From Escherichia coli (GTDB taxonomy: Bacteria > Pseudomonadota > Gammaproteobacteria > Enterobacterales > Enterobacteriaceae), in assembly GCF_050320075.1 (NCBI RefSeq), contig NZ_CP190018.1: DNA of 64,000 nt. One strand, given 5' to 3'. Shown here piece after piece: positions 27,805 to 35,276 of this stretch (position 1 is its first letter; every line of letters starts with the position of its first letter). The translations under genes and the position numbers were made by a program. Under the pieces are notes generated by a model. That model searched no databases. It was given only the letters and a program-made list of their open reading frames with translations, and was not told where the DNA came from.

Positions 27805-30270
<2,466 letters not shown>

Positions 30271-30286
30271 GTTCGCTAAAAAACAG

Positions 30287-30314
30287 AACGGGGCCAAAAG
30301 GTCCCGTTTTTTTT
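30287..30314 (+). terminator. rho-independent terminator of glgP
   Basis: aacggggcc-aaaa-ggtcccgtt hairpin followed by an 8-T run. Confidence 0.65.
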
Positions 30315-30386
30315 CGCCTTTATTTAGGAAAAGTGTCCAGAGGGGGCGAGGGTTATCGGGGAGTATAATTTCGCCATTCAGCAAGA

Positions 30387-31904
30387 ATGGAAAGAATAAT
30401 GCAAAACGGAAAATGGATTTTGACCTCGCTGGTAATGACTTTTTTTGGCATCCCCATACTGGCGCAATTTTTGGCAGCGGTTGTTGCCATGCTGGGGGCC
30501 GGGCTTGCCGCTATTCTTGAGTTTTGCAATTTACTCTTTACACCAACAATTTATCTTCTACTCAACGTCTTTATGCTGACGCTGGGCGCATTACTGCTAT
30601 TTTTCTCTGGGCGAGTGTGGGCGGGCGATAGCGCACCAGAAAACAGAGAAATAGCCGCCTGGCGACAATGTCTTTTTTTAGTTCCCGCTTTATTAACCCT
30701 GGTTGGCTGGATAATCACGCTACATCTGGCAGATTATCAATTTCGCCAGATGGGAGCCGGTTGGTTGGCAAACCTTATGCTTCCCTGGTTGGGCGTTTTT
30801 ACAGTCTCATTCGTCGGTGGTGAGTACTGGTGGATAGTCATTATTCCCGTTGGCGCGCATATCAGTTTTTCACTGGGATACGGCTGGCCGACCAGACACC
30901 CTTTAACCGGCACCTCCGGTCTACGTTGCCGTAATTTACTTCTGTTCATTCTTCTCTTACTGGGTATTGTCGCTGGTTATCAGGCTTATTTATATAAACA
31001 GCTTAATCCCGGCGTCGGTGTGCGTGAAAATATTGATACCTGGGCCTGGCGACCCGATAAACTTAATAATCAACTGACGCCACTGCGTGGTAAACCACAA
31101 ATTCAATTTACGCAAAACTGGCCGCGACTCGATGGCGCTACGGCGGCGTACCCCATTTATGCCTCTGCATTTTATGCATTAAGTGTAATACCAGAGGATT
31201 TTCACGTTTGGGATTATCTGGATAACTCTCGTACGCAAGAAGCATATAACAAAATCGTTAACGGTGATGCCGATATTATTTTCGTGGCGCAACCTTCCGA
31301 TGGGCAAAAAAAACGCGCTGAGAAATCGGGCGTCACTTTGCTGTACACGCCATTTGCCCGTGAAGCGTTTGTTTTCATCGTCAATGCGGATAATCCGGTT
31401 AATTCCCTGACTGAACAACAAGTGCGTGACATTTTTAGTGGCGCAATTACCAACTGGCGCACGGTTGGCGGTAACGATCAGGAGATCCAGACCTGGCAAC
31501 GCCCGGAAGACTCTGGCAGCCAGACAGTGATGCAATCGCAGGTCATGAAAAATGTCCGCATGATCTCGCCGCAGGAAACCGAAGTGGCAAGCATGATGGA
31601 GGGAATGATTAAAGTCGTTGCCGAATACCGTAATACAAACAACGCAATAGGCTACACCTTCCGCTATTACGCAACACAAATGAATGCCGATAAAAATATA
31701 AAACTGCTAGCGATTAACGGTATTGCACCGACTGCAGAAAATATTCGCAATGGCAAATATCCCTATGTCGTCGATGCATTTATGGTAACGCGGGACAATA
31801 TGACGTCAGAAACACAAAAACTGGTTGAATGGTTTTTAACGCCGCAGGGGCAGAGTCTGGTGGAAGATGTGGGCTATGTGCCGCTGTATCCAACAATGAA
31901 ATAA
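30387..31904 (+). CDS. membrane protein with N-terminal multi-TM domain fused to a periplasmic PstS-like (PBP-like_2) binding domain
   Basis: 505 aa; first ~190 aa hydrophobic; C-terminal domain has the PstS-type motif NPVNSLTEQQVRDIFSGAITNWRTVGG and QRPEDSGSQTVM; tataat -10 at 30364-30369; alternative start ATG 30399. Confidence 0.8.
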   Translation: MERIMQNGKWILTSLVMTFFGIPILAQFLAAVVAMLGAGLAAILEFCNLLFTPTIYLLLNVFMLTLGALLLFFSGRVWAGDSAPENREIAAWRQCLFLVPALLTLVGWIITLHLADYQFRQMGAGWLANLMLPWLGVFTVSFVGGEYWWIVIIPVGAHISFSLGYGWPTRHPLTGTSGLRCRNLLLFILLLLGIVAGYQAYLYKQLNPGVGVRENIDTWAWRPDKLNNQLTPLRGKPQIQFTQNWPRLDGATAAYPIYASAFYALSVIPEDFHVWDYLDNSRTQEAYNKIVNGDADIIFVAQPSDGQKKRAEKSGVTLLYTPFAREAFVFIVNADNPVNSLTEQQVRDIFSGAITNWRTVGGNDQEIQTWQRPEDSGSQTVMQSQVMKNVRMISPQETEVASMMEGMIKVVAEYRNTNNAIGYTFRYYATQMNADKNIKLLAINGIAPTAENIRNGKYPYVVDAFMVTRDNMTSETQKLVEWFLTPQGQSLVEDVGYVPLYPTMK

Positions 31905-31929
31905 CGCTCGAGAGAAAGGAATCAGCGCA

Positions 31930-32922
31930 ATGAATAAATTCACCTGTGTTTTACTATTAGGTACGGCGCTACTGGCGGGATGTGTCGACCGGGAAGGGTA
32001 CTATAACAGCGTCAGGGAAGAAGACAGCCATGGACTGACGTCTCTGCGGGGGCAACCTGAATTACGTTACAACGATGATTGGTCAAGATGGCCGAGAGTG
32101 TACGGCGCTACAGCCTTATACCCGCTGTATGCCTCCGCGTATTATGAATTAGTACCCGAGCCAAAAGATAAGGATCGAACCTCGCTGGCCTGGCAGGCGT
32201 ATGGTTTGCAACAAACCCGAACAGCTGAAGCCTACGATAGTCTGATTAAGGGTACCGCGACGGTTATTTTTGTTGCACAACCGTCGGAAGGACAGAAAAA
32301 ACGTGCAGAAGAAGCAGGTGTTAAACTCAAATATACCGCTTTCGCCCGCGAAGCCTTTGTCTTTATCGTTGATATCAAAAACCCGGTTAATTCACTTAGC
32401 GAACAGCAGGTCAAAGACATTTTTAGCGGTAAAGTGAGTCGCTGGAATAAAGTGGGCGGCGGTGACGAAGGTATAAAAATCTGGCAGCGGCCAGAAGATT
32501 CTGGAAGCCAAACGGTTATGAAGGGACTGGTTATGCAAGATACTCCAATGCTGCCAGCCAAAAAATCCACTGTTATCGATCTTATGGGCGGTTTAATTAC
32601 CGAAGTCGCCGACTACCAAAATACACCATCTTCTATTGGATACACCTTCCACTATTACGTCACACGTATGAATGACAATATGCTCAAAATGCGCAAACAG
32701 ATCAAACTGCTGGCTATAAATGGCGTTGCACCTACAGAGGAAAATATCCGTAACGGCACTTATCCGTACATAATTCATGCTTATATGGTGACGCACGAAA
32801 ACCCTACGCTGGAAACGCAGAAATTCGTCGACTGGTTTTTAAGCCCGCAGGGACAGCAATTGGTAGAGGATGTGGGCTATGTGCCGATTTATGACGCATC
32901 ATCCGAATCATCAGGACAATAA
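31930..32922 (+). CDS. lipoprotein with PstS-like (PBP-like_2) binding domain, paralog of the C-terminal domain of the upstream gene
   Basis: 330 aa; lipobox LLAGC; shares IFVAQPSxGQKKRAE..GV.L.YT.FAREAFVFIV..NPVNSL.EQQV.DIFSG...W..VGG...I..WQRPEDSGSQTVM with the upstream ORF; SD aaagga. Confidence 0.8.
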   Translation: MNKFTCVLLLGTALLAGCVDREGYYNSVREEDSHGLTSLRGQPELRYNDDWSRWPRVYGATALYPLYASAYYELVPEPKDKDRTSLAWQAYGLQQTRTAEAYDSLIKGTATVIFVAQPSEGQKKRAEEAGVKLKYTAFAREAFVFIVDIKNPVNSLSEQQVKDIFSGKVSRWNKVGGGDEGIKIWQRPEDSGSQTVMKGLVMQDTPMLPAKKSTVIDLMGGLITEVADYQNTPSSIGYTFHYYVTRMNDNMLKMRKQIKLLAINGVAPTEENIRNGTYPYIIHAYMVTHENPTLETQKFVDWFLSPQGQQLVEDVGYVPIYDASSESSGQ

Positions 32923-32924
32923 AG

Positions 32925-33525
32925 ATGAATAAAATCAGACTTTATATTCCTCCGTTAATTCTTGGTTTTGTTATTGTGCCGTTGTTGGTGTGGCCGACGG
33001 TGGTTGCGCTGGCTGCTTGTGTTATCACGCTGAGTTTTATGGGAGAAATACTGTTCTCTATCCCGCTCATGTTCAGGCGTATTTCACTTCTGGAATTCCA
33101 ACTTGGGTTATTGGCTGAATATGCACTTTTTTTTTCTGTGCCATGTGTTGCGTTGGTTGGCAATTTTCTTGCAGAGCTCAATCTGAACTGAAAAGCAGAC
33201 TCCATTGTTGGTTGGTATTTGCACCAGTTTATTTCTGGTTGCTCCTGTGGAATATCATTTTCTATGTCGCGCCAGCGCAAATTGCTTTGCTGGAAAATAT
33301 GCGCAATTTCTTTCTGACCATTGTCTGGTTACCCCTGAATTTTTTCAATTTGGGTCTCAGCCGTGGACTGACTTTATCGGTCCGATAAGCGCCCAGCTTG
33401 GTTTTGCATTGGGATATTATTGCCAGTGGCGTAGCAAAAATAGAAGTCAGAGGAAGAAGTGGGGCGAGTGGGTAATGTGTCTGAGTTTTGTTACGTTGGG
33501 TATGATTGCGTGGGCTTTGCGGTAA
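32925..33525 (+). pseudogene. frameshifted membrane-domain gene, paralog of the N-terminal TM domain of the 30387 ORF
   Basis: Three successive overlapping ORFs in frames 0, 2 and 1 (32925-33191, 33143-33388, 33205-33525) each align to consecutive parts of the TM domain of the 505-aa protein (e.g. NMRNFFLTIVWLPLNFFNLG vs QMGAGWLANLMLPWLGVFTVS; PISAQLGFALGY vs PVGAHISFSLGY). Confidence 0.55.
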
Positions 33526-33576
33526 TTCCTTGAATCAAAAAGTAGGTCAGATTGTTGACGAAGTGCGCTTTGTTTA

Positions 33577-33675
33577 TGCCGGATGCTGCGTGAACGCCTT
33601 ATTTTGTCTACAAAATCATGCAAATTCAATATATTGCATAAACCACGTAGGCCTGATAAGCGTAGCGCATCAGGC
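33577..33675. repeat. REP (palindromic unit) elements
   Basis: gccggatgctgcgtgaacgccttat (partial REP) and gtaggcctgataagcgtagcgcatcaggc (canonical REP) followed by a T-run. Confidence 0.65.
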
Positions 33676-33699
33676 AGTTTTTTTGTTTATCATCAGTCT

Positions 33700-33723
33700 C
33701 AGGTCAGATTGAAATCTGACCTG
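33700..33723 (-). terminator. hairpin immediately downstream of glpD
   Basis: caggtcagat-tgaa-atctgacctg, a perfect 10-bp stem 17 nt after the glpD stop. Confidence 0.45.
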
Positions 33724-33739
33724 ACCACCTTATGTTAAA

Positions 33740-35245
33740 TCACGAAGCCAGCGATAACCTCTGCTGCGTATACTCCACTAGCCACTGACTCACACGAGAT
33801 TGTTGATCCGCATTCAGCCACATGCCTTGTTTTGTGCGACGCCACAGGGCATCGTCGGCACGGCGGACCCATTCGTGATCCACCAGGTATTTCAGTTCCG
33901 CTTCGTAGAACTCATGACCGAAATCTTCCCCGAGATCGCCTATCGCCCCCGCATTGCAGAGCAGCAGCTCGCTGTTGCTGCCGTAAGTGCGCGCGTAGTG
34001 ACGTGCCAGCGATTCGGTCAGGAATGGGTAACGACGGCGCAGACGAGCTGAGTAATCGTCGCGGTCGCCTTCAATGGCACCACCCGGCAGCACGCTCTCT
34101 TTCGTCCATGCCGGGCCAATGCCCTGATAATACGGCGTCAGTTTTTCCAGCGCATGTTCCGCCAGTTTGCGGTAGGTGGTCAACTTACCGCCGAATACCG
34201 ACAGCAGCGGCGCTTTGCCGTTTTCATCATGGATATCAAGGGTGTAATCACGAGTGATAGCCTGCGGCGAATCGGACTCATCATCACACAGCGGACGCAC
34301 GCCGGAGTAGGTCCAGACGATATCGTCCCGGCTTAACTGCTTTTTAAAGTGCGTGTTATACACTTTCAGCAGGTAATTGATTTCACTCTCTTCAATTTTT
34401 ACTGCTTTTGGATCACCTTTGTATTCCACATCGGTGGTGCCGATGATGGAAAACTCGTCCATCCACGGGATCACGAAGACAATACGTTTATCTTCGTTTT
34501 GCAGAATGTAGGCCTGCTTTTGTGTATGCACACGCGGCACCACAATATGGCTGCCTTTGATCAGGCGAATGCCATAAGGTGAGGGTAGATGCATCCCGTC
34601 GTCGAAGAACTGCTTCACCCACGGGCCGGTGGCGTTCACGAGGCCGCGCGCTTGCCAGCTATATTTTTTGCCGGTATCGATATCTTCTGCTTCCACAATC
34701 CACAGGCCGTTTTCGCGGCGAGCAGAAGTGGCACGAGTCCGGGTAAGCACTTCACCGCCTTTACGTACCACCATCTGGGCGTTGGCGAGCACCAGACGGG
34801 CGTCATCTACCCAACAGTCGGAATATTCGAATCCGCGCTTAATTTCCGGTTTTAATACTGAATTTGCGCCAAAACGCAAACCGGTTGATCCCGGTAGGCT
34901 GGTGCGTTTACCCAGATGATCGTACATAAACAGACCAATCCGAATCATCCACGCCGGGCGCAGATGCGGACGATGCGGCAGGCGAAAACGCATCGGGAAG
35001 GCGATATGCGGGGCCATTTTCAGTAGCACTTCACGTTCAGCCAGCGCCTCGCTGACCAGGCGGAATTCATAGTGCTCAAGGTAGCGCAGGCCACCGTGAA
35101 TGAGTTTTGAACTGGCGGAAGAGGTCGCACAAGCGAGATCCTGCGCCTCCAGCATCAGCACGGATAAACCGCGTCCAGCGGCGTCTGCCGCGATACCAGC
35201 ACCATTGATGCCGCCACCTATCACAATCAGATCTTTGGTTTCCAT
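33740..35245 (-). CDS. glpD: aerobic glycerol-3-phosphate dehydrogenase
   Basis: 501 aa from ATG at 35245 (METKDLIVIGGGINGAGIAADAAGRG...); FAD-binding motif. Confidence 0.96.
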   Translation of the reverse strand: METKDLIVIGGGINGAGIAADAAGRGLSVLMLEAQDLACATSSASSKLIHGGLRYLEHYEFRLVSEALAEREVLLKMAPHIAFPMRFRLPHRPHLRPAWMIRIGLFMYDHLGKRTSLPGSTGLRFGANSVLKPEIKRGFEYSDCWVDDARLVLANAQMVVRKGGEVLTRTRATSARRENGLWIVEAEDIDTGKKYSWQARGLVNATGPWVKQFFDDGMHLPSPYGIRLIKGSHIVVPRVHTQKQAYILQNEDKRIVFVIPWMDEFSIIGTTDVEYKGDPKAVKIEESEINYLLKVYNTHFKKQLSRDDIVWTYSGVRPLCDDESDSPQAITRDYTLDIHDENGKAPLLSVFGGKLTTYRKLAEHALEKLTPYYQGIGPAWTKESVLPGGAIEGDRDDYSARLRRRYPFLTESLARHYARTYGSNSELLLCNAGAIGDLGEDFGHEFYEAELKYLVDHEWVRRADDALWRRTKQGMWLNADQQSRVSQWLVEYTQQRLSLAS

Positions 35246-35276
35246 GCTGCCCTCATTCACTTTCGTTAAAGCTCAT

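Follow-up and report, generated by a model that had tools for sequence, protein, structure and literature searches.

Between glgP and glpD in the chromosome of Escherichia coli there lies a run of accessory genes, the last of which is broken, and the question raised by this locus is what that gene was and how it came to stand behind two genes for proteins related to PstS. A sequence-only reading of the window (the whole stretch of DNA analysed here, 64,000 nucleotides of contig NZ_CP190018.1) had seen in it a membrane-domain pseudogene with at least two frameshifts, and had proposed that the pseudogene and the lipoprotein gene in front of it arose as a circularly permuted tandem duplicate of the fusion gene further upstream. 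The explanation that we consider very likely is a different one, namely that the membrane (TM) domain has an old paralogue with a separate evolution of its own, that the pseudogene is a copy of this paralogue which was lost only recently, and that this copy closes a mosaic cassette locus on its 3' side. The order of the genes, in which a fusion of a TM domain and a periplasmic binding protein (PBP) is followed by a lipoprotein PBP and then by the broken TM gene, is as had been claimed, and the features are these:

27823-30270, plus strand: glgP (local gene order).
30387-31904, plus strand: TM-PBP fusion gene, 505 amino acids from the first ATG (open reading frame, PGAP annotation).
31930-32922, plus strand: gene for a PstS-like lipoprotein (PBP), 330 amino acids, intact (open reading frame).
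32878-32922, plus strand: chimeric 3' end of the PBP gene, the right-hand recombination junction (similarity between locus types).
32925-33525, plus strand: frameshifted pseudogene for a stand-alone six-helix membrane protein (199/200 amino acids when intact).
33127-33135, plus strand: first frameshift, T9 against T7 in intact alleles (+2).
33340-33345, plus strand: second frameshift, T6 against T7 in the closest intact allele (-1).
33740-35260, minus strand: glpD, downstream of a REP-rich spacer and followed by glpE, glpG and glpR.

The three open reading frames from which the pseudogene had been deduced (32925-33191, 33143-33388 and 33205-33525) are all present as described, all on the plus strand, and align serially, in three frames, to a single intact orthologue of 200 amino acids from strain O157:H7 (WP_000981061.1), with piecewise identities of 87%, 87% and 80% and a joint E-value of 5e-93, which is far beyond chance. 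The closest intact allele, that of strain CLSC36, is 600 bp long; nothing but two substitutions and two indels sets it apart from the window, the indels being T7 to T9 at 33127-33135 (+2) and T7 to T6 at 33340-33345 (-1). Serial alignment and indels together confirm a pseudogene with two frameshifts. The positions proposed for the shifts, near 33150-33190 and 33348-33365, are not the sites of the lesions but the places where the old frames meet stops, and the first T run, although rightly flagged, had been placed one base off 33127-33135.

Comparison with orthologous loci, suggested earlier as a check, finds the gene intact elsewhere at 199 or 200 amino acids (O157:H7, CLSC36), and intact stand-alone alleles are present in hundreds of genomes. 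The intact gene is real and its intact alleles are under purifying selection, with dN/dS ratios of 0.20-0.36, and of 0.26 between two alleles that both lie behind a lipoprotein PBP; for comparison, the ratios are 0.12-0.30 for the fusion, 0.11 for the lipoprotein PBP and 0.03 for glpD. It is extremely improbable, then, that the three frames are three independent small genes. Each is open for 81-106 codons and has a possible start codon, but the three are colinear with one protein of 199/200 amino acids, which hundreds of genomes encode intact and under purifying selection, and the second and third begin inside the frame that precedes them, their apparent N-termini being out-of-frame read-through. 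No orthologous locus was found to keep the three frames as separate genes, the arrangement that had been named as speaking against a pseudogene.

Both indels lie in T runs, which are typical sites of sequencing or assembly error, and the gene might on that account be thought intact in the organism. Against this, exact 76-mers spanning the lesions occur in 156 (first lesion) and 163 (second lesion) of 5,426 complete genomes, strain SMS-3-5 included, and the carriers come from chickens, dogs, humans, gulls and water, and from many countries and laboratories. The recurrence of identical lesions in so many complete genomes excludes sequencing error, and the chance that the gene is whole in the organism is vanishingly small; nor does it fit with error that roughly half of the allele group, which counts 306 genomes, shows the intact T7/T7 version, without the lesions. 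The automatic annotation agrees, as PGAP calls exactly 32925-33525 'hypothetical protein, frameshifted' in the record of strain YZLc1-3 (NZ_CP123240.1), which is 100% identical to the window over 30300-33760, and does the same in SMS-3-5. The pseudogene as such is thus already known, its frameshift being flagged in RefSeq, and the frameshifted allele is a fixed trait of a sub-lineage.

One may ask whether such an allele could still be expressed. A run of nine T suffices for efficient slippage of RNA polymerase, and U UUU UUU is a slippery site, as in Shigella mxiE and IS elements. The insertion of two bases is, furthermore, the type of shift that a -1 slip corrects, so that transcriptional or -1 ribosomal slippage at T9 might restore the frame of a phase-variable or recoded gene. 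We hold this to be very unlikely, since the frame is shifted again, independently and by -1, at a T6 run 205 bases further downstream, short runs rarely slip, and both corrections would have to occur in one molecule; moreover, close relatives do not vary in the length of the runs, which is fixed (exact matches in 156 and 163 genomes). Translation that begins at the original start codon can now yield no more than an N-terminal fragment of 88 residues, and a full-length product of the window allele appears improbable, as the T6 lesion makes its rescue unlikely.

Compared with ordinary homopolymer-slippage pseudogenes of bacterial accessory genes, the TM gene of the window offers nothing unusual; it shares with them the indels in two T7 runs, the near-zero divergence otherwise and the fixation in a lineage. 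By itself it is routine, an accessory gene knocked out through homopolymer changes in one lineage. Frameshifts or truncations of independent origin are found in alleles of other E. coli lineages (P0047, P0063 and P0055), which indicates that decay of the TM gene is recurrent. In P0063 the frame break falls in the same T/C-rich stretch (LNF followed by SPFW) as the second lesion of the window, and this shared break site suggests a mutational hotspot.

The identity of the encoded protein is less easily established than its loss. The three frames had been said to align with the TM domain of the 505-residue fusion, a claim that fails when tested directly and holds when profiles of divergent relatives are used. 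A tblastn search of the region with the fusion TM domain returned nothing convincing, BLASTP aligned 160 residues with the adjacent fusion at 24% identity and an E-value of 0.014 (0.2 in a further comparison), which is not significant, and shuffle tests against the same neighbour were only suggestive (p 0.0005 for the global and 0.01 for the windowed version). With alignments made from E. coli sequences only, hhalign gave a probability of 1.6%, a value that is not counter-evidence, as these alignments are too shallow. The addition of P0147, a divergent stand-alone relative of 184 amino acids, raised the probability to 74% (E 2.8e-5), and against diverse Enterobacterales fusion TM domains it reached 98.7% (E 3.4e-16) over 179 columns and residues 1-192 of the TM protein. 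In pairwise comparisons P0147 matches a Salmonella fusion with 32% identity over 185 amino acids (E 1.3e-15), and the O157 TM protein reaches E 4e-5 with the Salmonella fusion and no better than E 0.2 with its own neighbour. To judge from these comparisons, the claimed homology to the fusion TM domain is correct and extends along the entire intact TM protein, yet the two neighbouring genes by themselves do not suffice to demonstrate it.

Structure prediction points the same way. An AF2 model from the TM family alone was unusable (pLDDT 49), whereas a joint alignment with fusion TM domains gave a model of six helices with a pLDDT of 84.3 and a pTM of 0.81; in a Foldseek search of AFDB50 with TM-scores of 0.52-0.73, TM-PBP fusions made up eight of the ten top matches and nothing else was comparable. 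This support is partly circular, because the alignment behind the model contained the fusion TM domains. The intact TM protein further has in common with the TM-PstS-like fusions the motif G-W-x-x-A-R and a helix of the (C/S)-L-L-L-x-P-A-like kind in addition to the six helices, and the fusion motif IP(V/I)(G/S)xQxxFxLGY is found in it as GPISAQLGFALGYY. It stops exactly where the periplasmic linker of the fusions starts: the intact orthologues end right after the last helix and carry no covalent PstS-like domain, and thus form a stand-alone branch of the family.

This branch is nearly confined to Escherichia. An HMM search of 1.84 billion representatives returned Escherichia sequences and the one divergent relative P0147 only, with no fusions at E <= 0.001, and a scan of genome contigs found matches in three Escherichia species only. 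Neither the TM protein nor the protein of 255 amino acids that precedes it in other locus types had a match in Pfam, NCBIfam or PADLOC. The TM gene has a dS of 0.75-0.86 between locus types, far above the 0.10-0.22 of the adjoining glpD.

The fusions, by contrast with the stand-alone TM family, have a broad distribution. In the window the fusion gene is annotated by PGAP from a start at 30396, which gives 502 amino acids, against 505 from the first ATG, and its product consists of an N-terminal six-helix membrane domain of about 205 amino acids and a PstS-like periplasmic binding domain. The latter matches Pfam PBP_like_2 (PF12849) at residues 249-485 (E 7.6e-32), and no Pfam match was obtained for residues 1-230. 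In strain NCTC86 yzgL covers the 5' end of the fusion gene only, and the fusion of the window is the intact counterpart of the yzgL remnant found in K-12-like strains. A search with the lipoprotein PBP showed TM-PBP fusions of some 500 amino acids (about 490-520) to be widespread in Enterobacterales, with carriers in Salmonella, Klebsiella, Intestinirhabdus, Phytobacter, Leclercia, Leminorella, Rahnella and Budviciaceae. As to their sites, the fusion gene adjoins glpD in Escherichia, Salmonella and Klebsiella, whereas in one Salmonella it lies between ruvC and ruvA, and in Rahnella between purB and phoP. A six-helix membrane domain without a Pfam family or a PDB fold match thereby links the 'PstS family' proteins of Enterobacterales to a stand-alone protein of Escherichia.

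Whether the lipoprotein PBP and the TM gene are a copy of the fusion in front of them can be judged from their relatives. The two PBPs of the window are paralogues, as had been claimed, and are 58% identical. The lipoprotein PBP, which has the lipobox LLAGC with Cys18, is 73% identical to a lipoprotein of Pseudocitrobacter and 66-68% identical to lipoproteins of Salmonella and E. albertii, against 60.7% for the adjacent fusion, and in a neighbour-joining (NJ) tree of PBP domains it falls inside a monophyletic, multi-genus clade of short lipoprotein PBPs. In the corresponding TM tree the stand-alone proteins (E. coli and P0147) form a clade of their own near the base of the Enterobacteriaceae fusion TM domains, with 21-30% identity to every fusion TM domain in the tree. 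Both are unbootstrapped NJ trees of short, divergent domains, so that the deep branching order is uncertain.

The proposal of a permuted tandem duplicate of the neighbouring fusion, later split in two, draws on the fact that the two parts are genuinely homologous to the domains of the fusion and follow directly downstream of it, and arrays of PBP genes are known at this locus, for instance fusion, PBP307 and PBP326 in E. coli TA054. By both identities and NJ trees, however, neither the PBP nor the TM protein is closest to the adjacent fusion. The lipoprotein PBP is nearer to proteins of other genera (73% and 66-68%) than to its neighbour (60.7%), and the TM protein has 24% identity to the neighbour (E 0.2), as opposed to the 27-32% (E 4e-5 to 1e-15) of TM200/P0147 to the Salmonella fusion. 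Nor do the two behave as one duplicated unit: the TM gene follows an unrelated gene for 255 amino acids in other E. coli, and one for 278 amino acids in a distant taxon, and the PBP gene of the window carries a foreign 3' tail, that of the 255-residue gene. Lipoprotein PBPs also occur elsewhere without a TM gene. As a local event, the tandem duplication seems largely refuted by these comparisons, and we now regard it as quite improbable; that the stand-alone TM gene descends from a gene of the fusion type remains likely, but this descent would be ancient, and may have taken a tandem route or another.

The alternative that we prefer, an old TM paralogue at the end of a mosaic locus, is best seen in the junctions. 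On the left, similarity between the forms of the gap stops within the last four or five codons of the fusion gene. On the right, the other locus types become similar again from query position 2579 (32878 of the window) onward, 45 bases before the stop of the upstream gene. The PBP of the window ends in YDASSESSGQ, which is the tail of the 255-residue gene, and its relatives end in a tail of the type LYKTLQ; set side by side at the right junction, the C-terminal tails read AMYDASSESSGH and AMYDASSESPGK against PIYDASSESSGQ, each up to the stop. Because the junction lies inside the gene end, the tail of the PBP gene is made up of the last nine codons of the 255-residue gene.

In the distant-taxon contig L010 the 3' end of a fusion of 501 amino acids, near-identical to that of L029, is followed by a protein of 278 amino acids and then by the TM gene P0147. 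The protein of 278 amino acids is 50% identical to the 255-residue protein, and its first 19 codons are YbbD-like, which makes the gene a chimera of a YbbD head and the 255-residue gene. Since the TM gene stands behind the 255-residue gene elsewhere, and since the tail of that gene is found on the PBP gene, the PBP gene would be the later arrival, placed in front of a resident TM gene; it is the parsimonious reading of these sequences that the TM gene was there together with the 255-residue gene and that the lipoprotein PBP gene was exchanged in.

At least six forms of the glgP-glpD gap (30271-33739 in the window, compared with L002-L009 and L025) can be told apart in E. coli. The form of the window, with fusion, lipoprotein PBP and TM gene, is found in 882 genomes at a coverage of at least 80%. 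Two others have the fusion, the 255-residue protein and the TM gene, with or without a YbbD-like gene after the fusion. A fourth has the fusion, two PBPs and other small genes, a fifth a fimbrial operon and a TM remnant, and a sixth, in K-12-like strains, the yzgL stump alone. The PBP gene with the tail of the 255-residue gene and the varying genes in the middle mark the gap as a mosaic cassette locus. Genes for YbbD-like proteins (Pfam YbbD_head) and 255-residue proteins recur downstream of the fusion gene in several genera (L004 4619-6099, L018 8534-9657, L019 8838-9958 and L029 1713-2429). The YbbD-like protein had no match in PADLOC, and its one NCBIfam match was weak (PRK09781, 25 bits, with the cut-off at 373). 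Literature searches on yzgL, on variability between glgP and glpD and on YbbD with Rhs returned nothing on this locus or family.

The following course of events would account for the locus. The intact gene encodes an inner-membrane protein of about 200 amino acids with six helices, an old paralogue of the membrane domain of the Enterobacterales fusions. The fusion gene at the 5' side and the TM gene at the 3' side are retained and the genes between them exchanged, and in the window type the lipoprotein gene replaced the 255-residue gene except for its last nine or so codons. In this lineage of E. coli the TM frame was broken by slippage in two runs of T7, once by +2 and once by -1. The stand-alone TM protein may be a partner of the 255-residue product, whose gene lies 2 nt upstream of the TM gene, and the loss of this partner may have relaxed selection on the TM gene in this lineage. 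Intact TM alleles are, however, under purifying selection beside the lipoprotein PBP (O157:H7, CLSC36), and partner loss alone thus does not make the TM gene dispensable. A strongly positive loop, QWRSKNRSQRKKW, precedes the last helix, which would hence run from inside to outside and place the PBP domain of the fusion in the periplasm.

As to function, the fusion and the lipoprotein PBP contain the same domain as the PstS/PBP_like_2 proteins (PF12849, TIGR02136), and their PBP domains are clearly related to solved PstS structures (E 5e-16). Inspected by eye, the S/T-rich motifs of these domains are partly kept (RPEDSGSQT) and partly changed (GATAAYP). With TIGR02136 the fusion scores 125.2 and the lipoprotein PBP 120.8 bits, both below the cut-off of 206.6, and no genes for an ABC permease or ATPase (pstCAB-like) were present in the locus of the window or in eight related loci. 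The absence of transporter genes and the scores below the PstS cut-off make a role in phosphate uptake doubtful, and, as the fusions come without such genes, their name 'phosphate ABC transporter substrate-binding protein' probably misleads. Unlike the PstS of ABC transporters, the PBPs of the window have a six-helix domain or a lipid anchor as their tether, and their relatives occur in Rhs/T6SS loci.

Lipoprotein PBPs of the window's clade stand directly downstream of Rhs C-terminal toxin domains once in E. albertii and twice in Salmonella. In E. albertii (L017) the order is VgrG, PAAR-Rhs, lipoprotein PBP and then a DUF6531 gene; one of the Salmonella sites has an orphan Rhs C-terminus with 68% identity to the toxin of E. 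albertii and a lipoprotein PBP directly after it, and at the second Salmonella site the lipoprotein PBP lies behind a different, unrelated toxin. In E. coli EC42405 the series is Hcp, VgrG, Rhs, a protein of 148 amino acids, a lipoprotein PBP (a displaced orphan) and a second Rhs. The coordinates of the Rhs-linked PBP loci are L017 1759-6999, L014 2343-4241, L027 6297-7972 and L030 3419-9430. The slot directly downstream of a toxin domain is the normal position of an immunity gene, and it is this gene position that suggests immunity. Two of the Rhs C-terminal toxin domains had no Pfam match, and one that was tested (Salmonella, L027) had no sequence match in the PDB. The literature searched held no description of PBP_like_2/PstS proteins as Rhs immunity proteins, and the locus of the window contains no Rhs, VgrG or toxin remnant.

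The gap resembles the orphan toxin/immunity arrays of Rhs/T6SS loci in that exchange takes place at junctions inside gene ends and leaves chimeric termini, and in that small cassette genes without known family are present, as are YbbD-like genes; the ybbD gene of K-12 lies in the rhsD region. Unlike typical orphan cassettes, the fusion gene has a position that is conserved across genera. It is possible, if still doubtful, that the PstS-like proteins of this family are periplasm-facing immunity or protection proteins against Rhs/T6SS toxins, and that the gap is an island of orphan-immunity cassettes of which the broken TM gene is one that is decaying. Immunity of this kind might apply to the lipoprotein forms and perhaps also to the TM-anchored fusions and the stand-alone TM paralogue, and with low confidence we place the role of the module with envelope protection or immunity rather than with phosphate uptake. 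If the placement beside toxins reflects function, a periplasmic binding-protein fold would have been recruited for toxin immunity, and immunity, if true, would explain the high variability of the glgP-glpD gap in E. coli.

The spacer between the pseudogene and glpD has features of its own. REP/BIME-like palindromic units (gccggatgc...; taggcctgataagcgtagcgcatcaggc) can be recognised by eye across 33560-33700, downstream of the locus type of the window, and in other locus types the spacer sequence differs. Within this REP-like spacer there is an Rfam match on the plus strand to the small RNA ES036 (CssrF), at 33612-33654, with 43.6 bits against a gathering score of 37.6.
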